Positions 11,023-60,062 of a stretch of 64,000 bases of DNA are shown in pieces. The stretch comes from an uncultured Anaerolineales bacterium (GTDB lineage Bacteria > Chloroflexota > Anaerolineae > Epilineales > Epilineaceae), in NCBI GenBank assembly GCA_964651245.1, contig CAZYVI010000016.1, positions 11,492 to 75,491 on the forward strand, in the 5' to 3' direction. The stretch's first letter is position 1. The number at the start of each line of letters is the position of its first letter. The translations under genes were made by a program, and so were the position numbers. The notes below the pieces were generated by a model. The model did no database searches. It saw only the letters and a program-made list of their open reading frames with translations, and had not been told where the DNA came from.

Positions 11023-11035
11023 CGGGTCGAGTGGC

Positions 11036-15676: not shown

Positions 15677-16212
15677 ACGTGTGGTCTCCTTCTCCCTCGT
15701 CCCTGTCCGCATCCCGCGCCGCCGGTCGCCTTGGGTGTGCACAAGGCGACCGGCGGGCACGGCGCGGCTCGTCGACCGCGGCCACGCCCCGCCACCGTCC
15801 TCGCGCGTCGCTTCGAAGGGCCGACGGTTGGATCGGGTGGCAACGGCGCCACCGCGGAGCGGCGCCTGGGCGGCAGTATAGGTCTGCCGCCAGCAAGTTG
15901 TCAACGACTCGTCAGGATCCGGTCACGTTGGGCCGTTGGCGCACGTTGTCCATGAAAAGGTGGCCCGACGCAGGTTCCCGTCGCCCGAAGAGCCGGTCAC
16001 ACCAGGAGGGCGATTGGCTATCGCCGTATCCCTTCCGACGTTAATAACCCGTGACGGCGACGTTGTGGACACCCCGGACCGAAACCCGGTCCGGGTCGGC
16101 GCCGTCACGGTTCGTCGGCCGCGACCGTAGCGGTCGGCGCAGCGCATCGTCACCATTCGCATGGCCGGGTCGCGGCGAGGGTCGCGGGCCGATCTCGAGG
16201 AGGAGCCGACGG

Positions 16213-22923: not shown

Positions 22924-24770
22924 GCCCGGTCCCCCCCGTGGCGGCGCGGCGGGCCCGACGGGCGGCCGCCGGGGCGCTCGTGGCGTCGGCGGCGCTGGCG
23001 CTGGCGGCGACGGGGCGGCTGCCGGCGGCCGCCGAGGACGCATCGCCGTGCCCCGCGAGCGCGACACGGACCGTGGCGCCGGCGACGGTAACGGTGGGCC
23101 AGCCGGCGACCGTCACCGCCGTGCTGCGGATCGGCTGCCCGGCGCTGGCGGGACCGCTCGACGTGGCCCTGGCCCTGGATCGGTCGGCGTCGATGCTCGG
23201 CGAGTCGTTGGCGGCGGCCAAGCATGCGGCGGGCGTGTTCGTCGACGTCGCCGAGCTCGGACGCGTCCGGGTGGCGGTCGTCGCGTTCGACGACCGGGCG
23301 ACGATCGAGGTGCCGCTGTCGAGCTGGCACAGCCGGCTGCGCGGGGCGATCGCGTCGATCCAGGTGCCGCCGGCGGCCGGCACCGACCTCGTGCGCGCGC
23401 TCGCCGCCGGCGGCCGGGCGCTGGATGCGGGCGCCGGCGATGGCCGCGCCGGTCGGCTGGCGGCGATGATCCTGCTGACGGACGGGCAGAACAACGGCGG
23501 CCGCGTGCCGGTGTTGCAGCAGGCGGCCGTCCAGCGCGCCAACGGCGTGCACCTGACCACGATCTCGCTGGGACGGCGGGCCGATCGCGACCTGCTGGCG
23601 CAGGTGGCTACGACCCCGGCCGACCACTGGCCGGCGCCCACCCGCGACGACCTGGCCGCGATCTACGCCCGGCTGCCCGGCCACCTCGATCGCCTGGCGG
23701 TGCGGTCGATCGACATCGACGACGTCGTCGGCGCCACGCTCGCCCTGCGCGAGGGCACGTCGCGGCCGCCCGCGTCGCTGGCCGGCGGCCGGCAGCGGTT
23801 CACGATCCCGGCCGCGGCGGCGGACGCGGTCACGATCACCTACGGCATCGTGGCATCGCAGCCCGGTCGCTGGCCGGTGAGCGCCGGCACCCAGGCCATC
23901 TACACCGACGTCACCGGCCGGACCGGATCCGTTGCCGTGCCGGTGCCGATCCTCGAGGTGGTGGCCGTGCCGACACCGGGTACCGCCGCGCCGGCCACGG
24001 CCACGGCCGCGCCGACGAGGCCCGGCGAGCCGACCACGACGCCGACGGCGACGGCGGCGCCGCCCACCGCGACGGCGACCGCGGCCCACCCGCCGCCGGC
24101 CACCGCCGCTGCCACCGCGACCGCCACCCCCGGCGCCGCGCGCCACCGGCGGTTCCTGCCGGTGGCACTGGCCGGCGCCTGTCTGCCCGGCGCGGTGCCG
24201 CTCGACCTCGTCGTCGTCGTCGACACCTCGACGACGATGTTGGGCCGGACGGCGAGCGGCGAGCGCAAGCTCGACCTGGCGGTCGACGGGATCGGGCGGC
24301 TCGTGGACGGCCTGTCGGGGCGGGCGTCGACGCGGATCGGCGTCGTGCGGTTCAGCGCCGCCGCCGCCGTGTGGTCGCCGCTCACCGCGGACCTCGCGGC
24401 CGTCCGGCGCGCGCTGGCCGAGCCCATCGCGGCGGGCCAGGGCTCGCGCATCGACCTGGGGTTGCGGCTCGCGGTCGACCTGTTCGCCGACGACACGACG
24501 GCCGGGCCGCCCTACCGGGCGGTCGTGCTGGCCTCCGACGGCCTCGTGTTCGGCGCCACGCCGGCCGATGTGCGCGACGCCGCGGACAGCGCGCGGCGTC
24601 GCGGGGCCGTGGCCTACGCCGTGGGGGTCGGGCCCGGCGCCGATCGGGCGCTGCTGGCGGCGGTAGCCGGCGACGCGAGCCGGACATTCGACGCCGGCGA
24701 CGGCGATGGGTTCGCGGCGGCGTTCCGCGCCGTGGTGGCCGCGCTGCCGTGTGCGCGCGCGGCGCCGTGA
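22920..24770 (+). CDS. Secreted double-vWA protein (paralog 6), translationally coupled to the cytochrome c gene
   Basis: The ATG at 22920 overlaps the upstream stop. Signal peptide 'MSPVPPVAARRARRAAAGALVASAALALAATG'. 'SPCPASATRTVAPATVTVGQPATVTAVLRIGCP...VALALDRSASM', then Pro/Thr/Ala linker 'TPGTAAPATATAAPTRPGEPTTTPTATAAPPTATATAAHPPPATAAATATATPG', then 'LVVVVDTSTTM'. The C-terminus is '...ALPCARAAP'. Confidence 0.8.
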   Translation: MSPVPPVAARRARRAAAGALVASAALALAATGRLPAAAEDASPCPASATRTVAPATVTVGQPATVTAVLRIGCPALAGPLDVALALDRSASMLGESLAAAKHAAGVFVDVAELGRVRVAVVAFDDRATIEVPLSSWHSRLRGAIASIQVPPAAGTDLVRALAAGGRALDAGAGDGRAGRLAAMILLTDGQNNGGRVPVLQQAAVQRANGVHLTTISLGRRADRDLLAQVATTPADHWPAPTRDDLAAIYARLPGHLDRLAVRSIDIDDVVGATLALREGTSRPPASLAGGRQRFTIPAAAADAVTITYGIVASQPGRWPVSAGTQAIYTDVTGRTGSVAVPVPILEVVAVPTPGTAAPATATAAPTRPGEPTTTPTATAAPPTATATAAHPPPATAAATATATPGAARHRRFLPVALAGACLPGAVPLDLVVVVDTSTTMLGRTASGERKLDLAVDGIGRLVDGLSGRASTRIGVVRFSAAAAVWSPLTADLAAVRRALAEPIAAGQGSRIDLGLRLAVDLFADDTTAGPPYRAVVLASDGLVFGATPADVRDAADSARRRGAVAYAVGVGPGADRALLAAVAGDASRTFDAGDGDGFAAAFRAVVAALPCARAAP

Positions 24771-24915: not shown

Positions 24916-25932
24916 ATGACCCGCCCCCGCGGCGGCCTGGAGGAACGCGCCTTGGTCGAGGACCTGACGCCCGATCGCATCGAGCCGTCCGGCGCCGCGC
25001 GCCGCGGTGACGCTGCGTGGCCGTTCGATGCGGCGCGGCTGGCGCGGATGCTGGCCAACGAGGCCGACATGTCGTTCAAGCGCCGGGCCGAGGCGGTGTA
25101 CGACTTTCTGCGCATCGGGCCGCACGACCGCGTGCTGGACATGGGCTGCGGCCGCGGCTTCTACCTCAAGTTCAGCCGCGAACTCTACCCCGACGCCGAC
25201 GTGGTGGGCGTTGAGCTCGATCGGCCGCTGTTGTCGACGGCGCGGGCGGCCGTGCCCGGGGCCGCGGTCGTGAACGGCAACGTCTATCGGCTGCCGTTCG
25301 CCGACGGCGCGTTCACGCGAATCCTGTTCACCGAGGTGATCGAGCACATCCCCGACGACGTGGCGGCGCTGCGCGAGCTCGCGCGCGTCTTGGCGCCGGG
25401 TGGTCGGCTGGCGATCACGACGCCGCACGCGGGCTACCCGCTGGCGTGGGACCCGCTCAACCGCATCCTCGAGGCGACCGTGGGCCGACCGATCCGCCGC
25501 GGCGTGCTGTCCGGCATTTGGGCGAACCACGAGCGGCTCTACACGCCCGAGGCGCTGAGCGCCAAGATCGCCGCGGCCGGGCTCGTCGTCGACGAGGTCC
25601 GCTTCTTGACCCGCTTCGCCTTTCCGTTCATCCACAACCTGGTCTACGGCTTGGGCAAGGAGCTGCTGGTGGCGGGCCGACTGCCGGACGCGATGGCGCG
25701 CGCGGCGGACCGCTTCGAGACCGGCGGGCAGCGCGGCGCATGGTGGAACCCGGTCCGCTGGGGGCTGGCGGCGTTCAACGTGGTCGACCGGCTGAACGAT
25801 GTCGTTCCGCCGCGCGGCGACGCGCCGTTCCTGATCCTGGCCGTCGCCGCGCGCAAGCCGGGCGAGCCGGACCCGGCCGCACGCGCCGCGGCGGCCGCCA
25901 TGCCGATCGCGCACCCGGAGCCGCAGCCATGA
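24916..25932 (+). CDS. Class I SAM-dependent methyltransferase
   Basis: 'RVLDMGCGRGFYL' is SAM motif I, and 'ILFTEVIEHIPDD' is the post-II region. The stop overlaps the start of the downstream giant membrane protein (ATGA at 25929-25932). Confidence 0.8.
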   Translation: MTRPRGGLEERALVEDLTPDRIEPSGAARRGDAAWPFDAARLARMLANEADMSFKRRAEAVYDFLRIGPHDRVLDMGCGRGFYLKFSRELYPDADVVGVELDRPLLSTARAAVPGAAVVNGNVYRLPFADGAFTRILFTEVIEHIPDDVAALRELARVLAPGGRLAITTPHAGYPLAWDPLNRILEATVGRPIRRGVLSGIWANHERLYTPEALSAKIAAAGLVVDEVRFLTRFAFPFIHNLVYGLGKELLVAGRLPDAMARAADRFETGGQRGAWWNPVRWGLAAFNVVDRLNDVVPPRGDAPFLILAVAARKPGEPDPAARAAAAAMPIAHPEPQP

Positions 25933-28900
25933 CCGAGCCCCTCGACCCGGTCGCCGCCGGCGACGCGGGCCACCTCGCGTCGCGCGAGGACCGCGACGGG
26001 CGGGCGTCGGCGCCGTCGTGGCGCCAGCGGCTGACGTCGCGCCGGCGGGGCCCCACGACGACCGCGCTGCTGCTGGGCGCGATCGTCGCCTGCGGCTTCT
26101 ACCTGCGGACGGTCGGCATCGACTGGGACGCCGGCCATCACCTTCACCCCGACGAGCGCTTTCTCACCGACGTCGCCAGCTCGCTGGCGATGCCGAACGA
26201 CCTGCTGCACTACCTCGACACCGACACCTCGCCCCTCAACCCGCGCAACCAGGGCAAGGCGTTCTTCTCGTACGGCACCTGGCCGATCACGATCGCGCGC
26301 GTCATGGCCGACGCCGCCGGGCCGCTCGGGCTGGGGATGACGGACTTCGGCTCGGTCTACATCGTGGGCCGCTACATGAGCGGCGTGCTCGACCTGTTGA
26401 CCGTGCTCTTCGTGTTCGGGCTGGGCGCCGTGCTGTACGATCGCCGCGTCGGCCTGCTGGCGGCGCTGTTCACGGCGTTCACGGCCTTCCACATCCAGCA
26501 GTCCCACTTCTTCACCGTCGACGCCGCGTTGACCTGTTTCGTGATGTGGACGCTGTTCGGGTTGGCGCTGGCCGTCCGGCGCCGCACCTGGTGGCCGCTG
26601 GCGCTGGCGGGCGCGGGCCTCGGGATGGCCCTGGGGAGCAAGGTCACGGTCTGGCTCTTGGTGCCGATCGCCGTGTTGACGATCGTCGCGGCCGAGCTGC
26701 GGCAGTCGCGGGCCGAGACCGCGGACGCGGACACCGATGCCCGGCCCCCGCACCCGATGGGGCGGGCGGCCGCCAAGGTCGCCTTGCTGGGCGTCGTCAG
26801 CTACGCCGCGCTGCGCTTCGCCCAGCCGGACATGTGGGCGGGGCCGGGCTGGCCGAACGTCGTCGGCAACAGCGCCCGCTTCACCGAGGTGACGGCCGGC
26901 AACTGGCATCCGCCGAAGCTGTGGTTCGACCTGCAAGCGGCCCTGCCGGACGCACTCGAAAAGTACCTGCTGCCCGACCCGCGCTGGATGGACAGCATGG
27001 CCCGCATCAAGGGCCAGGTGACGGGCTTCGGCATGGACTGGCCACCCAACCACCAGTGGTGGGGCCGCAAGGGGTACCTGTTCCCGTGGCGGAACATGGT
27101 GCTGTGGGGCATGGGCCCGGCGCTGGGGCTGGCCGCCTGGGGCGCGTGGCTGGCCGCGGGCGTCGCGATCTGGCGGGGCCGGCGGCGGCACCTGTTGCCG
27201 TGGCTCTGGGTCAGCGTGTACTTCGGCTACACCGGCATCCAGTGGGCCAAGACGATGCGCTACGCGCTGCCGATCTACCCCGCGCTGGCGGTGCTGGCGG
27301 CGTGGGGCCTGGTCGCCTGGCTCGACGCCGCGCGCCGCGCGCCCGCTGACGGCGCGCCCGACCCCGCGCCCGTCCCCGACCGGTCGCGGCGGTGGGCCGC
27401 ATTCGTCTTCGACCGGCGCGTCGCCGTGGCCGCGACCGCCGTCGTCGCGCTGGGCACGGTGGTGTGGGGCACGATGTTCTCGCGGCTCTACACCCGCCAC
27501 CACAGCCGCATCGCCGGCAGCCACTGGATCTACCACAACCTGCCGACAGCGGTGGGCGTCCGGATCGCCGACGACCCGGCCGGCCTCTATCCGGGACCAT
27601 GGCTGCCGGCGCTGGCGCCCGGCGACCTGCGCACCGTCGACGGCGTGCGCTGGCCGCTCGACGCCGCGTTCACCGGGCCGATGCGGCTGCACCTGCCCGA
27701 CGAGTCGTGGCAACAGCACCTCACCGGCGGCTCGTTCGGCGCCCGCCCCGATCTCTGGACGCCGCGCCGCGGCGACGCCACCGACGTCGCGTCGCTGCCG
27801 CGGCTGACCGTGGACGCCGTGCGGCTGGCGTACGCCCAGGCCGACGCGGCCTCGTCGCGCACCGTGCGGGTCGTGCTCAGTCAGGGCGCCGCGTTGCGAC
27901 CGGGCGGCGCGCCGGAGCGCGCGATCGCCCAGGGGCGGGCCGAGGTGCGGGTCGGGCCGGGTGAGGCGGCGCTCGAGGTCCCGCTCGACGCGCCGCTGTC
28001 GCTGCACCTGGGCCAAGAGGTCTACGTCTGGGTGGCCGTCGACGGTGGGCCGATCACCTGCCGGCCGGCGCGGATGGCCTACGAGACGAGCTGGGACGAC
28101 ATCGTGCCCGAGGGCATGTACGGCTACGCCGGCTACGACGATGCGACCACCGACTGGGTCGACGGCCTGTTCGGCGTGACGAACCTCGAGATGTACGGCG
28201 AGGACTATCCGGACTGGCTCGACCAGACGCTCGACCAACTCAGCCGCGTCGACTACTGGGTCTCGTCGTCAAACCGCGTCTACGGCGCGGTGGCCCAGCT
28301 GCCGATGCGCTATCCGGCCACGATCGCCTTCTACGAGAACGTGCTGTTCGGCGAGACGCTGGGCTGGCGGCACCGGGCGTCGGTCCAGTCGTTCCCGAGC
28401 CTCGGACCGCTGCGGGTCAACGACCAGGGGGCCGAGGAGGCCTTCCACGTCTACGACCATCCCCAGGTCGACGTCTTCGAGCGCCCGACGCCGTTCGACG
28501 CCGAGGCGCTGCGGGCCTACCTGGCGCCGATCACCGCCACCCGACGCTGGTCGTTCCCGCCGGTCTCGCCCAACCCGATCGTGCGCTTCGCCGACGCGCT
28601 CTTCGGCCGGATCCCGGTCGACCGCGCCGCGCCGGCCGGCGCCACCGTCGACGGCGGTGCCGCGCGCACGCGCACCGTCGACGCCGTCCTGCTCGACCCG
28701 GCGCGGCTGGCCGAACAGCGCGCCGGCGGCACCTGGCGCGACCGGTTCGACGTCGACGGCGTGCTGAACCGGTACCCCGTCCTCGGCGTCGTGGCGTGGT
28801 ACCTCGTGCTGGCGCTGCTGGGCCTGGCGGCGTTCCCGCTCGTCGCCGTCGCGCTGCCGCGGCTGCCGGACCGCGGCTGGTCGCTGGCGCGGACGGCCGG

Positions 28901-31391
28901 GCTGCTGGCGACGAGCTATGGCGCGTGGCTGGCGGCGTCGACGGGCGTCGCACGCCACGGGCGCGGACTGCTCGTGGTCGCCGCTGTCGGCGTGGCGCTG
29001 CTGTCGACGGCGGTGGCGCGCTGGGCCGGCTTCGAGGTTCGCGCCTGGCTGCGCGAGCACCGAGGCCGGGTGGCGACGATCGAGGCGGTCTTCCTGGCCC
29101 TGTTCGTCGTGTTCCTGGCGATCCGCATGGGCAACCCCGACCTCTGGCACATCTCCAAGGGCGGCGAGAAGCCGATGGACTTCGCCTACCTCAACGCCAC
29201 GCTGCGCAGCGTGCGCTTCCCGCCCTACGACCCGTGGTTCGCCGGCAGCAAGCTGAACTACTACTACTTCGGCTTCGTGTTCGTCGGGGCGCTGATTCAG
29301 CTGACCGGCATCGTGCCGTGGGTGGCCTACAACCTGGCCATCCCGACGCTGGCGGCGCTGACCGGTACCGGCGTCTGTGGTGTCGTGATCGGGCTGGCCG
29401 ACCGGCTGGCGGTGCGCGCCGCGGTCGGGCGGGCGGCGGGCGTCATCGCCGCCGGCATGACGGTGCTCATGGGCAACCTCTACCAAGCGCCGTGGCTGGC
29501 GGCGCGGTTGGCCGAGGCGGCGCCGCCGATCGGCCATGCCGGGCTGCGCAGCGCCATGCTGCGCGTCGAGGCGGTGCCGATCCTGGGGCAGTTCGTGCAG
29601 ATGCTGCGCGGCGCCTACGCCTTCGCCACGGACCCCGGGGCCCGCAACCTGTTCCCGCTCGACTGGTGGTACTGGAACGCGTCGCGCGCCATCCCCAGCG
29701 TCAGCGGCGACGTCCAGCCGATCACCGAGTTCCCGTTCTTCACGTTCCTCTACGCCGACCTGCACGCCCACATGATGGCGATGCCGATCGCCGTGCTCGC
29801 CTGCGGCCTGGCGCTGGGGTGGGCCACGCCCGGCCGGCCGGCGTCGTTCCGCCAGCCGTGGGTCGCGCCCGAGCCGGTCGTCCGCCTTTCCCTCGGCGCC
29901 CTGGCGATCGGCGCGCTCTGGCCGACGAACACCTGGGACTACCCAACCTACGGCCTCGTGGCCGCCGGCGCGATCGCCATCGGCGCGTATGCCCGTTCGC
30001 GGCGCTTCGACGTGCTCTGGTTCGGCCGCGTCGCCGCCACGGGCGGCGCGCTCTTGGCGCTCAGCCTGGCGCTGTTCCTGCCGTACCACCGCGCCTACGT
30101 GACGCCCTATTCGGAGTTCCAGGCGTGGCACGGCTTCCGCACGCCGGCGAGCGCCTACCTGACGGTGCACGGCATCTTCCTGTGCGCCATCGCCAGCTGG
30201 GCCGCGCTCGCGCTGGCCGACCACCTGGCCCGCCGCGCCGAGCGCGACGCTCTGGCGTGGCGGCTGGCGCTGGCGCTCGGCGTCGCCGTCGTCGCGGCGG
30301 TGGTCGCCTGGCAGTGGTCGCTGCGGTCGTTCCAGGCCGACCTGCCGCCCGACGTGCCTCGGCCCGAGCTCGCCACGCCGCTGCTCGTGGCGGTGCTCAT
30401 GGCCGTCGGCCTCGTGCTGGCGCTCCACGGCGCGGCGCGGCCGGCGGAACGGCTCCTCGGCTGGCTGCTGTTCGTCGGCGCACTCCTCACCGGTTTCGTC
30501 GAATACGTGGTCCTCAGCGGCGACATCGGCCGGATGAACACCGTGTTCAAGTTCTACATCCACGTCTGGATCCTGTGGTCGATCGCCGGCGGCGCGGCGC
30601 TGGCGGCGCTGCTCGACCGCGCCGGCGGCGGCGAGTCCGGCCGGCCTTCGCTGCCGCGCTCCGGCGCGGCCGCCCTGGCCGCCGCGGCGACGCTCGTGCT
30701 GGTGTCGAGCGGCATGCTCTACACGGTCACCGCGGCGCGGGCCAAGATCCTGGACCGCTTCCCGGCCGACCGCTCGATCGGCGACGAGCGGGCGGCGGCG
30801 CTGCGCCGGCCCGGCCTGTCGGGGATCGACTACATGGCCCATGCCGCCTACGTGGAGTACGGCGCCGACGACCAACCCGCGGTGCTCGATCTGCGCGCCG
30901 ACCTCGAGGGTATCCGCTGGCTGCTGGAGAGCGTCGACGGCACGCCGACGATCCTCGAGGGCACCTGGCCGATCAACTACCACTGGGGATCGCGCTTCAG
31001 CATCTACACCGGCCTGCCGACGGTCATCGGCTGGGACTGGCACCAAAAGCAGCAGAAGGCGGCGATCGTCGACGACCCGGTCGGCAACCGCCTCAACGAC
31101 GTCCGCACGATCTACGAGACGACGGACGACGCGCTGGCCAACCACCTGCTCGACCGCTACGGCGTCGAGCTCGTCATCGTCGGCCAGCTCGAGCGGATGC
31201 GCTACGACGCGGCCGGCCTCGCCAAGTTCGAGCGGTGGGCCGAGCAGGGCGCGGTCGAGGCGGTGTTCGCCAACGACCAGCTGACGATCTACCGTCGGCC
31301 GCTGCCCGAGTCGCCGGCCGCCCTGCCGGACGCGGCGCGGTCGCCGGCCGGGGCGCGCGGCGGTCCGGGGCGCGCGGTGCGCCCGGCATGA
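25929..31391 (+). CDS. Giant (about 1820 aa) polytopic GT-C-type membrane glycosyltransferase-like protein (PMT/ArnT-like N-terminus with an 'HPDERF' motif; 'DUF2298'-like C-terminal half)
   Basis: Overlap-coupled ATG. More than 25 predicted TM helices. An N-terminal loop 'GIDWDAGHHLHPDERFLTD' carries a DE-type motif as in the GT-C fold. The C-terminal half contains 'GGEKPMDFAYLNATLRSVRFPPYDPWFAGSKLNYYYFG', which is shared with the next gene. Confidence 0.75.
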   Translation: MTEPLDPVAAGDAGHLASREDRDGRASAPSWRQRLTSRRRGPTTTALLLGAIVACGFYLRTVGIDWDAGHHLHPDERFLTDVASSLAMPNDLLHYLDTDTSPLNPRNQGKAFFSYGTWPITIARVMADAAGPLGLGMTDFGSVYIVGRYMSGVLDLLTVLFVFGLGAVLYDRRVGLLAALFTAFTAFHIQQSHFFTVDAALTCFVMWTLFGLALAVRRRTWWPLALAGAGLGMALGSKVTVWLLVPIAVLTIVAAELRQSRAETADADTDARPPHPMGRAAAKVALLGVVSYAALRFAQPDMWAGPGWPNVVGNSARFTEVTAGNWHPPKLWFDLQAALPDALEKYLLPDPRWMDSMARIKGQVTGFGMDWPPNHQWWGRKGYLFPWRNMVLWGMGPALGLAAWGAWLAAGVAIWRGRRRHLLPWLWVSVYFGYTGIQWAKTMRYALPIYPALAVLAAWGLVAWLDAARRAPADGAPDPAPVPDRSRRWAAFVFDRRVAVAATAVVALGTVVWGTMFSRLYTRHHSRIAGSHWIYHNLPTAVGVRIADDPAGLYPGPWLPALAPGDLRTVDGVRWPLDAAFTGPMRLHLPDESWQQHLTGGSFGARPDLWTPRRGDATDVASLPRLTVDAVRLAYAQADAASSRTVRVVLSQGAALRPGGAPERAIAQGRAEVRVGPGEAALEVPLDAPLSLHLGQEVYVWVAVDGGPITCRPARMAYETSWDDIVPEGMYGYAGYDDATTDWVDGLFGVTNLEMYGEDYPDWLDQTLDQLSRVDYWVSSSNRVYGAVAQLPMRYPATIAFYENVLFGETLGWRHRASVQSFPSLGPLRVNDQGAEEAFHVYDHPQVDVFERPTPFDAEALRAYLAPITATRRWSFPPVSPNPIVRFADALFGRIPVDRAAPAGATVDGGAARTRTVDAVLLDPARLAEQRAGGTWRDRFDVDGVLNRYPVLGVVAWYLVLALLGLAAFPLVAVALPRLPDRGWSLARTAGLLATSYGAWLAASTGVARHGRGLLVVAAVGVALLSTAVARWAGFEVRAWLREHRGRVATIEAVFLALFVVFLAIRMGNPDLWHISKGGEKPMDFAYLNATLRSVRFPPYDPWFAGSKLNYYYFGFVFVGALIQLTGIVPWVAYNLAIPTLAALTGTGVCGVVIGLADRLAVRAAVGRAAGVIAAGMTVLMGNLYQAPWLAARLAEAAPPIGHAGLRSAMLRVEAVPILGQFVQMLRGAYAFATDPGARNLFPLDWWYWNASRAIPSVSGDVQPITEFPFFTFLYADLHAHMMAMPIAVLACGLALGWATPGRPASFRQPWVAPEPVVRLSLGALAIGALWPTNTWDYPTYGLVAAGAIAIGAYARSRRFDVLWFGRVAATGGALLALSLALFLPYHRAYVTPYSEFQAWHGFRTPASAYLTVHGIFLCAIASWAALALADHLARRAERDALAWRLALALGVAVVAAVVAWQWSLRSFQADLPPDVPRPELATPLLVAVLMAVGLVLALHGAARPAERLLGWLLFVGALLTGFVEYVVLSGDIGRMNTVFKFYIHVWILWSIAGGAALAALLDRAGGGESGRPSLPRSGAAALAAAATLVLVSSGMLYTVTAARAKILDRFPADRSIGDERAAALRRPGLSGIDYMAHAAYVEYGADDQPAVLDLRADLEGIRWLLESVDGTPTILEGTWPINYHWGSRFSIYTGLPTVIGWDWHQKQQKAAIVDDPVGNRLNDVRTIYETTDDALANHLLDRYGVELVIVGQLERMRYDAAGLAKFERWAEQGAVEAVFANDQLTIYRRPLPESPAALPDAARSPAGARGGPGRAVRPA

Positions 31392-33898
31392 CCGCCGTGC
31401 TCGGCGCGGCGCTGGCGTGGTGGGCGGCGACGACGGTCGTCGGCCTGGCCGCGGCGCCGATCGCCCGGACGTTGATGCCGACGCTGCCCGACCGGGGCTG
31501 GTCGGTGGCGCGACCGCTCGGGCTGCTCTTGGTCGGCTACGCCTGGTGGCTGTTCGTCACCGCCGGCGTCCTGCCGAACTCGCGGCTGGGCGTCGTCGTG
31601 GCGATCGTCGTCGTCGCCGCGGGCGGCGCGTTGCTGGTGTCCGGCGACGCCGCGGCGTGGCGCCGCGAGCTCTGGCAGCGCCGCCGGCTCATCGTCGGGC
31701 TGGAGCTGCTGTACCTGGCGGCGCTCGTGCTCTGGGCCGTGTACAAGGCGTTCACGCCGGAGGTCACCGAGTCGGGCGGCGAGAAGATGATGGAGATGGC
31801 CTTCCTGTCGGCCATCCTCCAGAGCCCGTCGTTTCCGCCGAACGACCCGTGGCTCAGCGGTCACTCGATCAGCTACTACTACTTCGGCTACGTCATCCAG
31901 GCGATGCTCGTCCAGTTGACGGGCCTGTCACGCTTCGTCGCCTTCAACCTCGTGGTGCCGTCGACGCTGGCGATGACGTTGGCGGCGGCCTTTGGGTTGG
32001 GCTGGTCCTTGGTGGTGTTGTCCCCGCGCGCATCGCGCGGGCTGGCGCTCGCCGGCGGGGCGGTGACCGCCGCCGTGCTCGCCCTCGCCGGCAGCTTGGC
32101 GGGCTTCCTGGAGCTGGCCTACATGCGCGGCTGGCTGCCGGCGGCGCTGTTCGACCACCTGAACATCCGCAACCTGACCATCGCCGCCGACGCCTGCGGC
32201 GAGCCGGGCAGCGGGTTCGGCTTGGGCGGCGTCTTCCCGTCGCGGTTCATGTGGTGGTGGCGCACGTCGCGCATCATCCGCGACGACTGCCGCGACGTGA
32301 TCCACGAATATCCGTTCTTCAGCTTCCTGCTGGCCGACGTCCACCCCCACGTCATGGCGCTGCCCTACGCGCTGCTGGTGCTGGCGCTCGCGCTCGCGCT
32401 GTGGCGGGGGGCGTCGGCGCGCTGGCCCGGGCCGCGCCTCTGGTCGCCCGTCTGGCTGCTGCTGCCGCTGATCGTGGGCGCGTTGGGCTTCCTCAACACC
32501 TGGGACCTGCCGACCTACGGCCTCGTGGCCGGGGCCGCTTGGGCGGTGTGGCGCTGGCGCCGCGGCGGGCGGGCGCTGCCGGAGATCCTCGGGTTCGGCG
32601 TCTGGCTGCTCGGCCTGGCGATCGTGTTCTACCTGCCGTTCTATGCCGCATTCCGTTCGCAGGCGGCCGGCATCGGCGTGGCGCGCTACGCGTCGCGGCC
32701 CGACCACTGGCTCGTCCACTTCCTGCCGCTGGCCTTCTTGGCGACGACGGTGGTCGTGGCGGCGCTGCGGCGGCTCGGCGCGCCGCGGGCGCTGCGGTTG
32801 TGCGGGGCGGCGCTGGGCGTGGCGGCGCTGGTGACGGTGGTGCGGTACGCCGGCGCGGCCGCGCTCGTCCCTCCCGACCGCGAGGCCGGCTGGACGCCGT
32901 GGACGCCGTTCGCCGTGCTGTTCCTGGCCACGCTGGCCCTGCTGGCGGCGCTGGCCGACGCGGGCATCTGGGGCGCGGGCGGCCGCCGCGCGGCCGAGTC
33001 CGGGTCGTCGTCGGACACCACGTCCCGCGACGCGGCCGCGGCGGCCGTTCCGCCGAGCGCGGCCGGCTTCGCGCTGCTGTGCGTCGCAGTCGGGGCGGTG
33101 ATGGCGGCGGTGCCGGAGCTCGTCTACCTCAAGGACGTGTTCGACGACCGGATGAACACCGTCTTCAAGTTCTTCTTCCAGGCCTGGGTCCTGTGGAGCG
33201 TCGGCGGTGGCTACGCCGTGGCGGCCATCTGGACGGGGCGGCCGGCGGACGACGCGGGCCGGTCGCCGGCGCGGCGCGGACCGGCCGCGGCGCTGGCGAC
33301 GCTGGGCGCCGGCGGCACCGCGTGGTTCGCGGCGCTCGCGCTCCTCGGCCTGATGGTCCTCTACACCCCCGTCGCGGCCGTCTTCAACCGCACCGACGGC
33401 CTGCGCTGGGTGGTGCTGCGCAGCCAGGGCTGGGCGGCGTGGTCGGCCAGCCTCCACCTCGACGGGCTGCGCCACTGGGAGCGCGACAACCCGGACGACC
33501 TGGCCGCGGCCCGCTGGTTGGCGCAGCATGCCGCCGGCACGCCGGTGATCGTCGAGGCGGCCGGCGGCGGCTACGACCGCGCCGGGCGCATCGCGATGAT
33601 CACCGGCTTTCCGACGATCCTGGGCGCCGACAACCACGAGTCGCAGTGGCAAGGCACCCGGGAGGACATCGACCCGCGGCTGGCGGACGTCGAGGCGTTC
33701 TACACCCGCGCCAGCGCCGCCGAACAAGCCGAGATGGTGCGCCGCTACGGCGCGCGCTACGTGATCGTGGGCGCGCGCGAGCGCGAGCGCTACGCCGGCA
33801 TGGCGCCCGACCTCGACGCCAAGCTCGATACGTTCATGACCCCCGTGTACCAGGCGGGCCAGACAACGGTCTGGTCCGTCGACGACCCCGCCCGCTAG
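31388..33898 (+). CDS. Polytopic membrane protein paralogous to the C-terminal half of 25929-31391 ('DUF2298'-like / GT-C family)
   Basis: ATGA overlap with the upstream gene. 'GGEKMMEMAFLSAILQSPSFPPNDPWLSGHSISYYYFG' matches the motif of the previous gene. About 20 TM helices. A C-terminal soluble domain resembles the previous protein ('GTPVIVEAAGGGYDRAGRIAMITGFPTILG...'). Confidence 0.75.
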   Translation: MTAVLGAALAWWAATTVVGLAAAPIARTLMPTLPDRGWSVARPLGLLLVGYAWWLFVTAGVLPNSRLGVVVAIVVVAAGGALLVSGDAAAWRRELWQRRRLIVGLELLYLAALVLWAVYKAFTPEVTESGGEKMMEMAFLSAILQSPSFPPNDPWLSGHSISYYYFGYVIQAMLVQLTGLSRFVAFNLVVPSTLAMTLAAAFGLGWSLVVLSPRASRGLALAGGAVTAAVLALAGSLAGFLELAYMRGWLPAALFDHLNIRNLTIAADACGEPGSGFGLGGVFPSRFMWWWRTSRIIRDDCRDVIHEYPFFSFLLADVHPHVMALPYALLVLALALALWRGASARWPGPRLWSPVWLLLPLIVGALGFLNTWDLPTYGLVAGAAWAVWRWRRGGRALPEILGFGVWLLGLAIVFYLPFYAAFRSQAAGIGVARYASRPDHWLVHFLPLAFLATTVVVAALRRLGAPRALRLCGAALGVAALVTVVRYAGAAALVPPDREAGWTPWTPFAVLFLATLALLAALADAGIWGAGGRRAAESGSSSDTTSRDAAAAAVPPSAAGFALLCVAVGAVMAAVPELVYLKDVFDDRMNTVFKFFFQAWVLWSVGGGYAVAAIWTGRPADDAGRSPARRGPAAALATLGAGGTAWFAALALLGLMVLYTPVAAVFNRTDGLRWVVLRSQGWAAWSASLHLDGLRHWERDNPDDLAAARWLAQHAAGTPVIVEAAGGGYDRAGRIAMITGFPTILGADNHESQWQGTREDIDPRLADVEAFYTRASAAEQAEMVRRYGARYVIVGARERERYAGMAPDLDAKLDTFMTPVYQAGQTTVWSVDDPAR

Positions 33899-33906
33899 CA
33901 ACCCGG

Positions 33907-36900
33907 ATGGACGCAGAGATGGACGAGTTCACGACGCAACCCGACGACCGCGCGGCCGAGCCGCCGCGCGCCGACCGCGCCCGCCGCCGCGCCCGCACCG
34001 GGCCGACGATCGCCGAACGATGGGCGGCGTTCCGGTGGGACTGGGAGGCGGTGGGCTGGCTGGTCGTGATCGCGCTGGCCGTCGTCAGCCGCCTCGTCTT
34101 CCTCGGCGAGCGGGCGATGTCGCACGACGAGAGCCTCCACACCTTCTACTCGTGGCAGCTGGCCGTCGGCAAGGGCTACCGCCACGACCCGATGATGCAC
34201 GGTCCGATCCTGTACCACTGGACCGCGCTGATGTACCTCCTGTTCGGCGTCAGCGACTTCACCGCCCGCTTGTTCGGCGCCCTGAGCGGCATCGCCTTGG
34301 TGGCGACGCCGTTGCTGCTGCGCAAGTGGCTGGGCCGCTTCGGCGCGCTGGCGGCGGGGGTGCTGCTGCTGCTCTCGCCGTCGATCATGATGTACTCGCG
34401 CTACATCCGCCACGATATCTCGATCGAGCTCGCCACGGTGCTCATGCTCATCGGCTTCATCCGGTACCTCGACGACCGCCGGCCGCGCTGGATCATCACC
34501 GCGTTCGTCGGCGCCGCGATCGGCATCACCTCGGCCGAGATGTCCTACATCACCGGTTTCGTGCTGGTGGCCTTCATCGGGCTGGCGCTGTGGGTCGAGT
34601 GGGCCGGCGCGGGCGACGGCGCGCGCGGGCCGTGGGGGGTGCGGCTCGGCATCGCCGCCGTGCTCGTCGCGGCGGCCTTCGGCGTCCGGCGCCTGGCCGA
34701 CGTCGCCTCGTTGACCTCGATGCCCGCCGCCGCGCTGGCGGCGGTCGGCGTCGCCCTCGCCATCGCGCTCGCCGCCGTCGGCTGGCTGCTGGCGCGCGCC
34801 GCCGGCGCCGCCGGAAGCGACCGCGGCGCCACCGCGGTCGCCGGCGACCCGGGCTGGTTGACGCCGGTGAAGCTTGGGCTGGCCCTGCTCGCCGTGGGCG
34901 CGCTGCTGCGGCTGCCGCTCGACCCGAGCGCGGCGGCCAACTCGGCGCAGTGGTACCTCGGCAAGGTCGGCGTCAGCCTGATGGTGGCCGGCGTGCCGTT
35001 CGTGGCGGTCGGCGCCGTGGCGGCCTTCGTGCCGCTGCCGGCCGCCGCCGACCGGCTGGCGCAGCTCGTCGTCGGGGCGGTGGCGGCGCTGACCTACATC
35101 CTGTTCGCCGAGGGCTTCGTCAGCCACGGCGTCACCACGGCGTTCGACGCCGCGTACTACGCCTGGTCGATCGCCGGCGTGCTCGCCCTGGCGGTGGCGG
35201 CCGTGTGGCTGCTCCTCCAGCTGCCGCGCCGCCGCGTCTGGGCGCTGCTGGCCGTGGTCGGCTGGGCGCTGCTGGCATTCGACCTCGCCGTCCAGTACGG
35301 CGGCGCAGCCGACCGTTTCGCCGGCTGGCAGAGCACCAGCGCCATCGTCGGCGGCCTGCTCTTGGCGGTGGGCGCGGCGGTCATGGCGTTCGACCTGGCG
35401 GGGCGGGCCGCCGAGGCGCCCGCCGCCTGGCGGCGCTGGCTCGGCGCAGCCTGGCCGAACGCGATCGGCATCGGCCTTGGGATCGTCGCGTTCGCCCTGG
35501 CGGTGCGCGGCCAGGGCGACGTGTCGCACCTCACGAAGATCGCCGAGCCGCTGGCCGTGGCGTCGGGCATCGTGCTGGCGCTGGCGATCGGCGCGGCGAT
35601 GCTTGCGCCGGGCGCGCGGCCGGAGCGCGGCGTGTTGCGGCAGCTCAACGCCGTGCCGTACGAGGGGGTCGTGATCGCCGGCGTCGCGTTCATCGTGCTC
35701 TACCTGGCGTTGTTCACGACGTGGTTCCAAGAGACCGATCTCGCCAACGGCTTCGCCCGCTCGCTGAAGTACTGGTGGTCGCAGCACGACGTCCAACGCG
35801 GCGGCCAGCCGTGGTACTTCTACATCCTGGTCATCGGGCCGCTCTACGAGTGGCTGCCGATGGCGCTGAGCGCCGTGGCGCTGGGGCTGTACGCCCGCCG
35901 GCCGGCGCTGCGCTTCGGGCGCGGCAACGACAGCGGCGACGACGGCGCGCCGTCGCCGGCGGCGTGGGCGTTCGTGCCGATGATCGTGGTGTGGATGCTG
36001 GGCGTGTGGTGGATCTTCAGTTGGGCCGGCGAGAAGATGCCGTGGCTGATCACCCACATGGCCGTGCCGATGATCCTCCTGGCCGCGCGCGCCGTGGCCG
36101 ACCTCGGCGCGCAGGTCGACCTCGCCGCCTGGCGAGCCAAGGGCTGGCAGGTCACGTCGCTGACGATCGCGGCGCTGGCCCTGCTGGCCGGGCTGGTCGC
36201 GCGCTCGACGTCGCTGGCCGCGGCCGAGGCGGCGCGGCCGGCGTGGGTCGGTTGGGCCGTGGCGGCCGTCCTCGTCGTGGCGCTGCTGTCGGGCGTGCGC
36301 GCCGTCGGCGGCGAGCTCGCGCCCGCGGCGCGGCGTCACGCGCTGGGCCTCGGCGTCGGGATGTTCGCGCTGGCCGTCAGCGGCGGCTATGCCCTGCTGG
36401 CCAACTTCAAGAACAGCGAGCTGGGCACCGAGTACCTGGTCTATGCCCACGGCACGCCCGAGGACAAGGACGTCTACGAGCTCCTGCAGCGCATGGACCA
36501 GGCCCGGCCCGACCAGCCGCTGAAGGTCGGGTTCGACAACGAGGTGAGCTGGCCGTTCACGTGGTACTTCCGCAACATCTGCCCGCCGCGGGCGCGCGGC
36601 CTGGCCGCCGATCTGGCCTGCCTCCTCGGCCAAGGCTGCCCCGATCCGACGGCGTGCAGCGATTGGCGGGTCGATCCGAAGTACCTGGCCGACGGCAAGA
36701 ACCCGCCGGTCGACGTCGCCGGGCTCAAGGAACTCGACGCCGTGCTCGTCGGCTCGCCGAACTACGGCAACTTCGAACCGTACCTGCGCAAGGACTTCGT
36801 CGAGGTCGAGGTCAACCGGATGTACTGGCCCAACGAGGGATACAAGGGCCTCACCTGGAGCCGGATCCGCGACGCCCTCGTCGTGCCCGAACTGCGCGCC

Positions 36901-38214
36901 AACCTGCTGCGGATCATCGTGCACCGCGAGTACGTCGTCGACCCGCTGGCCAAGCCGCTCGCGCCCAAGTCGCTCGACGACTGGTTCTACCACGCCAAGA
37001 TGAAGCTCTGGGTCAAGAAGTCCACCGCGCAGGCGCTGGAGGCCACCGGTCAGGACTGGCCGGAGTGGATGAAGGGCGTTTCGATCGAGCCCGAGGCCGA
37101 CCACAGCGTGCCGTTCGAGATCGACCGCGCCTTCACCGAGGCCGACGGGCTGGCCTTCAACGCCCCCAAGGACGTGGCCGTCGCCCCCGACGGCAGCTTC
37201 TACGTGGTCGACCACGGCAACAAGCGCCTCGTCCACCTGGCGGCCGACGGGACGCTCGTCGCGGCGATCGACGCGCCCGTCCTGGAGTACAGCGACGACA
37301 ACGCCGGCATCCAGCCCAGCGCCTGGGGCGTCGGCGTCGGCCCGGACGGTGCGGTGTACCTGGCCGATACCTGGAACAACCGCCTGCTCGTCTACCGCGA
37401 CGATGCGTTCACCGAACGCACCTTCGGCACGGGCGGCGTCCCGGCCAGCGCCGATGTCGACCTCGACAAGCTCTTCGGACCGCGCGACGTGGCCGTGGGG
37501 CCCGGCGGCGAGCTGTTCCTCACCGACACCGGCAACAAGCGGATCATCGTCATCGGGCCGGACCTCACGGCGGTCCGTTCGATCGGCAAGGAGGGCAACG
37601 CGGCCGGCGAGTTCAGCGAGCCGGTGTCGGTGGCCTTCGATCCCGAGACCGGGGAGATGGTCGTCGCCGACCTCTGGAACCTCCGCATCCAGGTGTTCGA
37701 CCGCGACCTCATGCCGGTGCGGCAGTGGGCCGTCGACGGTTGGGGCAGCAAGGAGGCCGCGCACAAGGCGTACGTCGCCGTGGGGCCCGGCGGCACCGTC
37801 CTGGTGACCGACCCGCAGGGCGCGCGGGTCTGGATCTACGACCGGCAGGGCGCCGTCCTGGGCACGCTCGACCTGGAGAACGACCCGACCGGGCTGCTGC
37901 AGCCGATCGGCATCGCCGTCGCGCCGGACGGCTCGATCTACGTCGCCAGCTCCGAGAAGAACATCGTCACCCGCTACCGCTGGCCCGAGAGCCTCCGTGC
38001 CGCGGTCGGACTCGACGCCGCCCCGGCCGCCACGGCCGACCCCAACGCCGCGACCGCCACGGCCGGCTCGCCGGCCGCCGCGACCGCCACGCCGCCGCCC
38101 ACCGCCACCGCGGCCGACGCGGCGGGCGACGCCGGCGGGGCGGCGGGAGCCGACGATCCGGCCGCGGGCGCGCCGCTGCCCAGCCCAACGCTGGGCCAGG
38201 CGGCGCGCCCGTGA
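33907..38214 (+). CDS. GT-C / family-39-like (PMT/ArnT-type) membrane glycosyltransferase fused to a C-terminal periplasmic NHL-repeat beta-propeller
   Basis: N-terminus 'MSHDESLHTFYSWQL...HGPILYHW...LLLLSPSIMMYSRYIRHD' is the ArnT/PMT_2-like DE motif region. Many TM helices follow. The C-terminus has at least 4 NHL-like repeats ('FYVVDHGNKRLVHLAADG', 'VYLADTWNNRLLVYRDD', 'LFLTDTGNKRIIVIGPD', 'MVVADLWNLRIQVFDRD') and an Ala/Thr/Pro-rich tail. The start is 33907 or 33919. Confidence 0.75.
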   Translation: MDAEMDEFTTQPDDRAAEPPRADRARRRARTGPTIAERWAAFRWDWEAVGWLVVIALAVVSRLVFLGERAMSHDESLHTFYSWQLAVGKGYRHDPMMHGPILYHWTALMYLLFGVSDFTARLFGALSGIALVATPLLLRKWLGRFGALAAGVLLLLSPSIMMYSRYIRHDISIELATVLMLIGFIRYLDDRRPRWIITAFVGAAIGITSAEMSYITGFVLVAFIGLALWVEWAGAGDGARGPWGVRLGIAAVLVAAAFGVRRLADVASLTSMPAAALAAVGVALAIALAAVGWLLARAAGAAGSDRGATAVAGDPGWLTPVKLGLALLAVGALLRLPLDPSAAANSAQWYLGKVGVSLMVAGVPFVAVGAVAAFVPLPAAADRLAQLVVGAVAALTYILFAEGFVSHGVTTAFDAAYYAWSIAGVLALAVAAVWLLLQLPRRRVWALLAVVGWALLAFDLAVQYGGAADRFAGWQSTSAIVGGLLLAVGAAVMAFDLAGRAAEAPAAWRRWLGAAWPNAIGIGLGIVAFALAVRGQGDVSHLTKIAEPLAVASGIVLALAIGAAMLAPGARPERGVLRQLNAVPYEGVVIAGVAFIVLYLALFTTWFQETDLANGFARSLKYWWSQHDVQRGGQPWYFYILVIGPLYEWLPMALSAVALGLYARRPALRFGRGNDSGDDGAPSPAAWAFVPMIVVWMLGVWWIFSWAGEKMPWLITHMAVPMILLAARAVADLGAQVDLAAWRAKGWQVTSLTIAALALLAGLVARSTSLAAAEAARPAWVGWAVAAVLVVALLSGVRAVGGELAPAARRHALGLGVGMFALAVSGGYALLANFKNSELGTEYLVYAHGTPEDKDVYELLQRMDQARPDQPLKVGFDNEVSWPFTWYFRNICPPRARGLAADLACLLGQGCPDPTACSDWRVDPKYLADGKNPPVDVAGLKELDAVLVGSPNYGNFEPYLRKDFVEVEVNRMYWPNEGYKGLTWSRIRDALVVPELRANLLRIIVHREYVVDPLAKPLAPKSLDDWFYHAKMKLWVKKSTAQALEATGQDWPEWMKGVSIEPEADHSVPFEIDRAFTEADGLAFNAPKDVAVAPDGSFYVVDHGNKRLVHLAADGTLVAAIDAPVLEYSDDNAGIQPSAWGVGVGPDGAVYLADTWNNRLLVYRDDAFTERTFGTGGVPASADVDLDKLFGPRDVAVGPGGELFLTDTGNKRIIVIGPDLTAVRSIGKEGNAAGEFSEPVSVAFDPETGEMVVADLWNLRIQVFDRDLMPVRQWAVDGWGSKEAAHKAYVAVGPGGTVLVTDPQGARVWIYDRQGAVLGTLDLENDPTGLLQPIGIAVAPDGSIYVASSEKNIVTRYRWPESLRAAVGLDAAPAATADPNAATATAGSPAAATATPPPTATAADAAGDAGGAAGADDPAAGAPLPSPTLGQAARP

Positions 38215-38232: not shown

Positions 38233-38322
38233 CGGGTTAGAGGGCCTAACAAGACCACACGGCCACGGATCTCTACCGGGCCGAGGCACGTTGTCGCGCC
38301 GGTCTTGTCAGGGTCTCTTAGG
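38233..38322. repeat. Copy 1 of an approximately 90-nt intergenic repeat with internal inverted repeats (partner at 59975-60062)
   Basis: '...gagggcctaacaagaccacacggccacgga...ggccgaggcacgttgtcgcgccggtcttgtcagggtctcttaggg' is about 85 % identical to the second copy. The arms 'gacaagacc' and 'ggtcttgtc' are reverse complements. It lies between convergent genes. Confidence 0.5.
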
Positions 38323-52758: not shown

Positions 52759-53690
52759 CGTCCGCGCCGTCCGGCGCGGCGATCGAGGTCGCGGGCCTCG
52801 TCAAGCGCTACGGCGCGTTCGTCGCGGTCGACGATCTCTCGTTCGATGTCGGCCGCGGCGAGATCTTCGGCCTGCTCGGGCCGAACGGGGCCGGCAAGAC
52901 GTCGACGATCCGGATGCTGCTGGGCCTGTTGGCGCCGTCGGCCGGCCGGATGGCGGTCCTCGGTTCCGACGACGTCCGCACCGTCCTGCCCCAGATCGGC
53001 TACCTGCCCGAGGAGCGCGGCCTCTACCGCGACGTCCGCGTCGGCGATTGCCTCGCCTACCTGGCCGGGCTCAAGGGCGTGTCGTCGGCCGATGCGCGCC
53101 GGCGCATCACGGCGGGCTTGGAGGCGCTCGAGCTGCCGGGCATGGAGCGGCGCGTCATCAAGACGCTGTCGCGCGGCCAGCAGCAGAAGGTCCAGTTCCT
53201 GGCCACCGTCGTCCACCGCCCGGCCTTGCTCGTGATCGACGAGCCGTTCAGCGGCCTCGACCCGGTGAACACGCGCGTCCTCAGCGAGTTCCTGCGCGGC
53301 CTGCGCGCCGACGGGACGACGATCGTCATGTGCTCGCACCAGATGAACCGCGTCGAAGAGCTCTGCGACCGGCTGCTGATGCTCCACGGCGGTCGGCGCG
53401 TGCTCTACGGCGGCGTCACCGAGATCCGGCGCACCTACGCCGGCGACCGCGTGCGCGTCGACGTCGCCGGCGGGCCCGCCCTGGCGCGCCTGGCGAACCT
53501 GCCGGGCGTGGCCGGCGCCGAGGCCGACGGCGACGCCGCCCTGCTGCGGCTGGCGCCGGGCGCCTCGCTCGCCAGCCTGCTGCGGGAGCTCGCCGGCCAC
53601 ACCGATTTCGACCTCCAGCGGATCGAGGTCTACTTGCCGTCGCTCGAGGAGATCTTCCTCGAGGTGGCCGACGGCCCGCGCGCGGCATGA
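52755..53690 (+). CDS. ABC transporter ATP-binding protein (ABC-2 / DrrA-like)
   Basis: Walker A 'GPNGAGKTST', the signature 'LSRGQQQKV', and Walker B 'LLVIDEPFSGLD'. It is overlap-coupled on both sides. Confidence 0.85.
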   Translation: MTSAPSGAAIEVAGLVKRYGAFVAVDDLSFDVGRGEIFGLLGPNGAGKTSTIRMLLGLLAPSAGRMAVLGSDDVRTVLPQIGYLPEERGLYRDVRVGDCLAYLAGLKGVSSADARRRITAGLEALELPGMERRVIKTLSRGQQQKVQFLATVVHRPALLVIDEPFSGLDPVNTRVLSEFLRGLRADGTTIVMCSHQMNRVEELCDRLLMLHGGRRVLYGGVTEIRRTYAGDRVRVDVAGGPALARLANLPGVAGAEADGDAALLRLAPGASLASLLRELAGHTDFDLQRIEVYLPSLEEIFLEVADGPRAA

Positions 53691-57312: not shown

Positions 57313-58128
57313 GTGATCCCGCCGCCCAGCGACCTCGATCCGGCCACGGCCGCGCCCAGCGACGGCGGTCCGTGGATGGTCGAGGCCGTCGATCTCGTCA
57401 AGCGCTACGGCGACGTCGACGCCCTCGACGGGCTGACGTTGCGCGTCGGCCGGGGCGAGATCTTCGGCTTCCTCGGCCCGAACGGCGCCGGCAAGACGAC
57501 GACGATCCGGATCCTTACCGGGCTCCTGCAGCCGAGCTCGGGCGTGGCCCGCATCGGCGGCCACGACCTGGCCACCGACCCGCTGGCGGCGCGGGCGCTC
57601 ATGTCGTTCATCCCCGACACGCCCTACCTCTACGAAAAGCTGACCGGCCGCGAGTTCATCCACTTCGTGGCCGGGCTCTACCGCACCCCGCCCGAGGTGG
57701 CCGAGCGACGCATGGCCGAGCTGCTGGCCGTGTTCGACTTGGCCGACCGCGCCGACGACCTCATCGAGGGCTACTCGCACGGGATGCGGCAGAAGACGCT
57801 GATGATCGCCGCGCTCGTCCACGACCCGGCGGTGCTGTTCCTCGACGAGCCGACCGTCGGCCTCGACCCGCGCTCGGCCAAGCTGATGCGCGACGTCTAC
57901 CGCCAGCTGGCGGCGCGCGGTACGACGATCTTCCTCTCGACCCACATCCTCGAGATCGCCGAGCGAATGTGCGACCGGATCGGCATCGTGAACCACGGCC
58001 GGCTCATCGCGCTGGGGACGATGGACGAGCTGCGGCACATGGCCGCCCAGAACGCGTCGCTCGAGGACATCTTCCTCGAGTTGACCGGCGGGGCGGCGTT
58101 CGCCGAGATCGCCCGGGTCCTGGCGTGA
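57313..58128 (+). CDS. ABC transporter ATP-binding protein
   Basis: Walker A 'GPNGAGKTTT', the signature 'YSHGMRQK', and Walker B 'VLFLDEPTVGLD'. The start is the GTG at 57313 or the ATG at 57376. The stop overlaps the next start (GTGA). Confidence 0.8.
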   Translation: MIPPPSDLDPATAAPSDGGPWMVEAVDLVKRYGDVDALDGLTLRVGRGEIFGFLGPNGAGKTTTIRILTGLLQPSSGVARIGGHDLATDPLAARALMSFIPDTPYLYEKLTGREFIHFVAGLYRTPPEVAERRMAELLAVFDLADRADDLIEGYSHGMRQKTLMIAALVHDPAVLFLDEPTVGLDPRSAKLMRDVYRQLAARGTTIFLSTHILEIAERMCDRIGIVNHGRLIALGTMDELRHMAAQNASLEDIFLELTGGAAFAEIARVLA

Positions 58129-59974: not shown

Positions 59975-60062
59975 CTGAGACGGCCTGACAAGACCACACG
60001 GCCACGGAACTCGACATGGCCGAGGCACGTCGTCGCGCCGGTTTGTTAGGGACGCTTAGTCG
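59975..60062. repeat. Copy 2 of the approximately 90-nt intergenic repeat (partner at 38233-38322)
   Basis: 'tgagacggcctgacaagaccacacggccacggaactcgacatggccgaggcacgtcgtcgcgccggtttgttagggacgcttagtcg'. It again lies between convergent genes. It overlaps the last few codons of the minus-strand permease gene. Confidence 0.5.

Follow-up and report, generated by a model that had tools for sequence, protein, structure and literature searches.

MITEs are gene-less DNA transposons of the cut-and-paste kind and are not autonomous. The RUP (repeat unit of pneumococcus) of Streptococcus pneumoniae, a MITE of 107 bp, is attributed to IS630-Spn1. The Correia elements (CREE/NEMIS) of Neisseria are present in hundreds of copies per genome and have promoter and IHF-binding features, and the Stowaway MITEs of plants, derived from Tc1/mariner, are flanked by a TA duplication. 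Duplication of TA at a CTAG/YTAG target is the signature of the IS630/Tc1-mariner superfamily; some subgroups of the IS5 family likewise make TA-containing duplications of 2-3 bp. As for IS630 itself, it reportedly inserts at 5'-CTAG-3' and duplicates the TA (work of Tenzen and Ohtsubo). According to PMC10969869, in which RUP is named, prokaryotic MITEs are shorter than 500 bp, have inverted repeats of ~4-30 bp and direct repeats on their flanks, and give transcripts that form stable stem-loops.

We analyzed a stretch of DNA of 64 kb (the window, meaning the whole of that stretch) with two copies of a short intergenic repeat. With a probability of about 85%, we read this repeat as a miniature gene-less transposon, a MITE, that inserts at the rare CTAG/TAG sites of stop codons and would be mobilized in trans by a transposase of the IS630/Tc1-mariner type. 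Read in this way, the repeat belongs to a well-known kind of element, of which it forms a new family; it is not a gene for a new RNA.

With respect to the definition of prokaryotic MITEs, the element was 79 nt long, had no coding capacity and ended in imperfect terminal inverted repeats of 17-18 nt. It was flanked by a direct repeat, seen as a TA duplication at the third locus and as TA/TA and TG/TA at copies 1 and 2 of the window, respectively. Copies resided at three unrelated loci of one species-level population. Mobility was visible in the filled and empty alleles of copy 3 (10 vs 4 contigs) and in the empty orthologous sites of copies 1 and 2. A TA duplication at an NTAN target (CTAG) was observed directly for copy 3 and, judging by the flanks, probably accompanied copies 1 and 2 as well; it is this TA/CTAG signature that suggests an IS630/Tc1-mariner-like parent.

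The two window copies, ~79 nt each, were ~85% identical and lay 21.7 kb apart; their coordinates, along with those of their parts, are given in Table 1. An earlier note, made from the letters of the window, had reported two copies of this identity, each at a junction of convergent genes, and both observations held. The MAFFT alignment of the two intergenic regions had a mean column identity of 85%, while the BLAST alignment of copy 1 to copy 2 showed 90% identity across a 61-nt core. Probes of 22 and 25 nt made from the element matched only the two window copies, with 0 matches expected (100 shuffles). The covariance model built from the three copies gave ~103 bits for each window copy, and the runner-up in the window scored 22.7 bits. 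Homology of copies 1 and 2 ended at the element boundaries, and the genes flanking them were unrelated.

Table 1. Positions of the element copies, their parts and the CTAG sites in the window.
Feature	Position	Strand	Basis and remarks
Copy 1, left TA duplication	38238..38239	+	Sequence; TA model taken from polymorphic copy 3; the 3-bp reading would be TTA 38237-38239
Copy 1 of the proposed MITE, 79 nt, GAGGGCCTAACAAGACC...GGTCTTGTCAGGGTCTCT	38240..38318	+	103.4 bits; orthologous junction of relative L048 is without the element
Copy 1, left terminal inverted repeat GAGGGCCTAACAAGACC	38240..38256	+	Pairs with 38301-38317 at 15/17 positions
Copy 1, internal hairpin 1 (CGGCC...GGCCG)	38260..38283	+	Loop is the most variable part among copies
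Copy 1, internal hairpin 2 (GGCACGTTGTCGCGCC)	38285..38300	+	Stem pairs invariant in all copies; the loop alone varies (T in copy 1, C in the others)
Copy 1, right terminal inverted repeat GGTCTTGTCAGGGTCTCT	38301..38318	+	Pairing with left arm
Copy 1, right TA duplication	38319..38320	+	With base 38318, forms the minus-strand TAA stop of the 579-aa gene
Copy 2, left duplication remnant TG	59976..59977	+	Putative: TA with one substitution, from the TA model
Copy 2 of the proposed MITE, 79 nt, AGACGGCCTGACAAGACC...GGTTTGTTAGGGACGCT	59978..60056	+	103 bits; found in strain contigs L001, L050, L051
Copy 2, left terminal inverted repeat	59978..59995	+	Fold/alignment
Copy 2, right terminal inverted repeat	60040..60056	+	Shorter by a 1-nt deletion than in the other copies
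Copy 2, right TA duplication	60057..60058	+	With base 60056, forms the minus-strand TAA stop of the ABC permease gene 60056-61069
CTAG sites (central TA)	932, 13485, 33896, 44823, 46347, 47842		The non-stop site is 13485, intergenic

Both copies occupied convergent junctions of 103-107 nt. At copy 1 the gene ends were at 38214 and 38318; the neighbors, identified by frame plot and Pfam, were a PMT_2/NHL protein of 1,435 aa, whose gene ends with TGA at 38212-38214, and a minus-strand protein of 579 aa (stop at 38318-38320), the start of whose gene, ~40057, was placed by hand. At copy 2 the gene ends were at 59948 and 60056; the neighbors were an ABC_tran_2 membrane protein (stop at 59946-59948) and the minus-strand ABC permease (60056-61069, stop at 60056-60058). 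The best named homologs came from MAGs of Ardenticatenales, Ardenticatenia, Caldilineae and Anaerolineae, and the uncultured host probably belongs to the Chloroflexota.

The window had several other features. The PMT_2/NHL gene is the last of three consecutive, very large membrane glycosyltransferase-like genes (25929-38214) that code for PMT/PMT_2 with DUF2298 (1,820 aa), DUF2298 (836 aa) and PMT_2 with NHL (1,435 aa), an order kept in the 69% relative L048. The 579-aa protein is homologous to a part of VWA proteins of other Chloroflexota. The window itself has six clustered genes for paralogous proteins with VWA domains, of which some also have NHL repeats (4154-17670 and 23094-24770); the cluster contains GC-rich repeats with a 12-nt period (family D1, at ~4770, 8276-8382, 11688-11818 and 14457-14605), which probably encode low-complexity linkers. 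In a 550-nt intergenic region between minus-strand VWA genes there is a GC-rich palindrome (13619-13700) with 47-nt arms that are 79% complementary; its match to the element model was weak and non-specific (20.6 bits), and it is not a family member. Three tandem tRNA genes (Rfam, 63-79 bits) lie on the minus strand at 3823-4096, in the junction where the first VWA gene converges with a Wzy_C gene (O-antigen ligase-like). Two paralogous genes of ABC-transporter ATPases situated 4.6 kb apart share segments with 71-77% identical DNA (52783-52937 vs 57380-57534, and 53169-53264 vs 57775-57870); this is a case of ordinary paralogy unrelated to the MITE.

In every copy, the terminal inverted repeats, with the consensus (A)GAGNCCCTRACAAGACC, form an outer stem enclosing a 44-nt core with two small hairpins. 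The element termini read (A)GAG and are ambiguous by 1 nt. If a duplication of TA is assumed, all three copies are exactly 79 nt long between the flanking dinucleotides. The left and right arms differ alike in every copy, GGCC on the left and WCCC on the right, which points to descent from one master sequence. No frame was open in all copies, and a search with the concatenated six-frame translation of the element against 5.8 billion proteins produced no match.

The long-range inverted repeat claimed in the earlier note was present, and the strong hairpin fold is due to it. Copy 1 folded far better than shuffled sequences, with RNA z-scores of -3.9 for the plus strand and -6.0 for the minus strand (the latter with a folding energy of -47.8 kcal/mol) and a DNA z-score of -6.2. 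The fold of copy 2 was marginal in this respect, with RNA z-scores of -1.7 (plus) and -1.2 (minus) and a DNA z-score of -2.0. The claim that substitutions preserve the pairing stood in a weak form: one arm position was A.C, G-U or A-U across the three full copies, but the overall covariation was no better than in controls, with three pairs changed on both sides vs 2.8 in shuffles.

A scan of a metagenome collection with the split 22-base pattern ACCACACGGCC-N8-30-GGCCGAGGCAC produced 22 matches, a single one of which was genuine: copy 3, in a 1,185-nt contig (L028) of GCA_009612775.1, at an unrelated locus. Such a low yield says little on copy number because the collection is without the ERZ795105 contig, which carries copy 2. 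Among 185,579 representative genomes, the same pattern had 18 chance matches, all in coding DNA, and no true copy. The viral contigs scanned gave chance matches only, and the BLAST search of PLSDB plasmids gave no match; thus, neither the plasmids nor the viral contigs nor the representative genomes contained a detectable relative of its sequence. The covariance model found no copy beyond those known in the window and ~170 kb of related loci, nor was a full-length element with matching ends found there. A search of the window for a full-length IS by 12-nt inverted repeats returned only the elements themselves. Domains of transposases, integrases, Y1 transposases or RAYTs, as well as tyrosine recombinases, were absent among the 36 window genes (three of which had no Pfam match at all). 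The documented loci of the element are three, within one species-level population, and a high copy number is thus not implied.

Copy 3 is situated between two co-directional genes, directly after the TAA stop of an unrelated 167-aa gene. A near-identical allele of this gene was present in samples ERZ795105 and ERR7015672, which also hold versions of the window region that are 97-100% identical; this puts locus 3 and the window in one species-level population. We observed that locus 3 is polymorphic. The element was present in 10 metagenome contigs (L028/L082 and nine contigs that Logan assembled from the SRR254358xx series) and absent from four contigs of four other samples (L070-L073), with flanks 98.6-100% identical. 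ERR7015672 and ERZ795105 were among the samples with the empty allele. The empty allele reads ...TACCGC TAG GCGGTGG... (CGC-TAG-GCGG), while the filled allele reads ...TACCGC TA[AGAAGGCC...GGGACTC]TA GGCGGTGG... (CGC-TA[AGAAGG...GGGACTC]TA-GGCGG). The difference is an insertion of 79 nt with a duplication of TA; the target of copy 3 is CTAG, and the stop of the gene changed from TAG to TAA.

We also considered a duplication of 3 bp, TNA, which makes the arms more symmetrical and would indicate the IS5/IS1031 group. The TA duplication was preferred since the 3-bp reading requires an extra mutation, G to A, at the polymorphic site. With TA as the duplicated dinucleotide, the flanks indicate that the target of copy 2 was probably CTAG and that of copy 1 probably TTAG.

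The copies differed in orientation: the right end abuts the stop codon in copies 1 and 2 and the left end in copy 3. Both orientations are expected for insertion into a palindromic target and not for a strand-specific RNA. Besides, 18 Logan contigs from one run series, representing two loci (L056-L063 and L074-L083), had 3' ends 13-69 nt inside the element. This pattern fits a repeat with multiple copies; strain variation within a sample could have the same effect, and we did not count it as proof.

The orthologous junctions of relatives were empty. The nearest relative found for the site of copy 1 (L048/L049, with a neighboring protein 69% identical) had the same two convergent genes and no element; the genes were 19 nt apart (TGA...CTA) and the same C-terminal peptide, VGCPLLP, was encoded. 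At the site of copy 2, strains whose permease is identical (L050, L051) had the element with one substitution. L052, a relative whose permease is 89% identical and converges with the same partner gene, had a 45-nt spacer with no element. The divergence of ~15% between the window copies is a lot for two insertions made after the split from this 89% relative, unless the source copies had diverged. In the 72% relatives, which have a different neighboring gene (L064-L069), the covariance model found no match.

A permease 80% identical to that of window positions 60056-61069 was found in a Logan contig of SRR31776071 (L055, 1441-1479). After its stop codon TAG comes AGAGCCGGGCAAGTAATCCCTGAGG, and only 39 nt remain to the end of the contig. 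This segment starts with AGAG, which resembles the terminus of the MITE, and a different, related element may have inserted at the same stop codon in this relative.

What unites the three copies is that each has its TA/CTAG target within a stop codon. The GC content of the window is 70-79% throughout (~74% overall), and it contains just six CTAG tetranucleotides, of which five form C-TAG stop codons. If the less strict patterns YTAG/CTAR are counted, there are 12 sites: stop codons account for seven and the elements, within them or at them, for three, while one of the remaining two is intergenic elsewhere and the other is coding. Since CTAG is almost restricted to C-TAG stops at such a GC content, insertions land on stop codons. 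The five C-TAG stops of the window are potential target sites, at present unoccupied. The 36 window genes use TGA 27 times, TAG seven times and TAA twice, and both TAA stops (38318-38320 and 60056-60058) are at the elements. Because copy 3 is positioned between co-directional genes, convergence of genes is not the common factor; the convergent position of the window copies is a by-product.

Several other origins of the repeat have to be weighed. The earlier note had listed a repeat family along with a small-RNA gene or 3'-UTR-derived RNA, a bidirectional terminator and a REP-like element. The family was borne out by the third copy at an unrelated locus and by the presence-absence differences between strains and relatives; the other three were not supported. 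A structured non-coding RNA, be it a small-RNA gene or a 3'-UTR element with a three-way-junction fold kept by selection, would explain why copy 1 is so stable, the more so on the minus strand, and why the stem pairs of the two inner hairpins barely vary among the copies. We consider it very unlikely, given that Rfam returned nothing at the gathering score and, even at E <= 10, only two chance miRNA matches, and that the covariation is at the level of shuffles. Pairs are broken without compensation by the A.C of copy 1, by an A to T change in L050 and by the 1-nt arm deletion in copy 2, and copy 3 has lost hairpin 1 in its distal part. Neither the two orientations relative to the adjacent gene, nor the absence from orthologous junctions of relatives, nor the polymorphism with a TA duplication within the species agrees with such an RNA. 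A bidirectional intrinsic terminator or an mRNA-stabilizing hairpin that evolved in place at the ends of convergent genes agrees with the location of both window copies and with a palindrome that would fold in transcripts of either strand. Yet none of the stems is followed by a T/U tract, and scanning the two window loci for terminators yielded 0 terminator-like sites. The element is missing from four other convergent junctions of the window (two of 7 nt, one of 199 nt and one of 290 nt), as it is from the 19-45-nt junctions of the relatives, and copy 3 does not separate convergent genes. Besides, an identity of 85-90% between unrelated loci requires common origin and not convergence. We regard evolution in place as highly improbable.

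Common origin is also offered by mobile elements of other kinds. The repeat is intergenic and palindromic, as would be a REP/BIME palindrome spread by a RAYT (Y1) transposase or a palindrome associated with an element of IS200/IS605 type. REP and IS200/IS605-type elements are not known to make a target duplication; at locus 3 the duplication of TA is directly visible, and the window genes had no Y1-transposase domain. REP sequences are 20-40 bp long and bear a tag, GTAG or CGTC, on one of their ends (PMC3733652), whereas the element has 79 nt and no such tag at either terminus. We consider this origin extremely unlikely. The possibility that the earlier note had set beforehand against its own reading, that the copies are remnants of a duplicated gene 3' end (or of a segmental duplication), would suit the small number of known copies, but the similarity is confined to the inverted-repeat termini and what lies between them, the flanking genes are unrelated at the three loci, and empty and filled alleles differ by the element only; its chance is negligible. 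There is just as little to be said for an integron attC site. The R''/R' boxes of attC have the consensus RYYYAAC...GTTRRRY, which the arms GCCTAAC...GTTAGGG resemble: RYYYAAC is matched by the GCCTAAC of copies 1 and 3, the GTTAGGG of copies 2 and 3 departs from GTTRRRY at a single base, and the length of the element is within the attC range. Still, the final base of the core-site consensus is unmatched in every copy, and the window copies are solitary, far apart and located among housekeeping genes (LepA, PdxS/T, SucCD, SecDF, ABC transporters) with no tyrosine recombinase or integrase gene among those of the window. What was inserted, with its TA duplication, was the palindrome alone, with no cassette or array.

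The MITE interpretation suggests the following course of events. A DDE transposase encoded elsewhere in the genome would bind the terminal inverted repeats, insert the element at the TA within CTAG/YTAG and duplicate the TA. The duplicated TA and the terminal A of the element would then rebuild a TAA stop, as can be seen directly at locus 3. With its stop rebuilt, the interrupted gene would remain intact, and the insertion would therefore be near neutral. The hairpin could incidentally influence the 3' ends of mRNA. Such targeting and repair of stops follows from the known behavior of IS630-type elements and would not surprise a specialist.

For annotation, the case means that a conspicuous conserved intergenic 'structure' is explained as a mobile element, and that labeling it as an sRNA or a terminator is unwarranted. 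It is a clear example of how CTAG specificity combined with an extreme GC content steers a transposon to stop codons, where the TA duplication and the terminal A repair TAG to TAA. The rare TAA stops in this lineage may flag insertions of the MITE genome-wide. The polymorphic copy 3 can serve as a strain marker, and the element appears to break short-read assemblies. A MITE family is added in a poorly sampled uncultured lineage, while the knowledge of MITEs is otherwise unchanged.

It is conceivable, though we think it unlikely, that a MITE that seeks and rebuilds stop codons has been co-opted as a bidirectional transcription stop without a U tract or as an RNA-stabilizing hairpin; a further possibility of this rank is that the mobilizer belongs to a transposase family not yet linked to MITEs. 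A co-opted role, if true, would be of consequence in a Chloroflexota lineage whose GC content is high and whose intergenic spacers are very short.

Among known systems, the element read as a MITE can be compared with RUP. Like RUP, it is a small intergenic sequence that codes for nothing, ends in terminal inverted repeats and is flanked by a TA duplication, and mobilization in trans by an IS630-family transposase is presumed for both. On the other hand, there is no detectable sequence similarity between the two, the element described here is shorter and resides in an uncultured host with 74% GC, and all of its known copies are on stop codons.

With the Correia elements it shares a size of ~100 bp, long inverted repeats, the TA duplication and the position beside genes, as well as hairpin-forming transcripts that can affect mRNA. 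The Correia repeat contains TTAACAAAAA, which resembles TAACAAGACC of our element; we take this as a lead only. The copy numbers in the hundreds and the promoter and IHF features belong to Correia.

The Stowaway elements likewise duplicate TA, have inverted repeats that are short, lack coding capacity and give rise to transcripts that form hairpins. They are eukaryotic, however, and unrelated in sequence, and the likeness is an analogy of mechanism only.

Finally, although IS630 differs from the element in carrying a transposase gene, the two agree in their target: CTAG with a TA duplication at the polymorphic copy 3 and, as the flanks suggest, CTAG at copy 2 and TTAG at copy 1.
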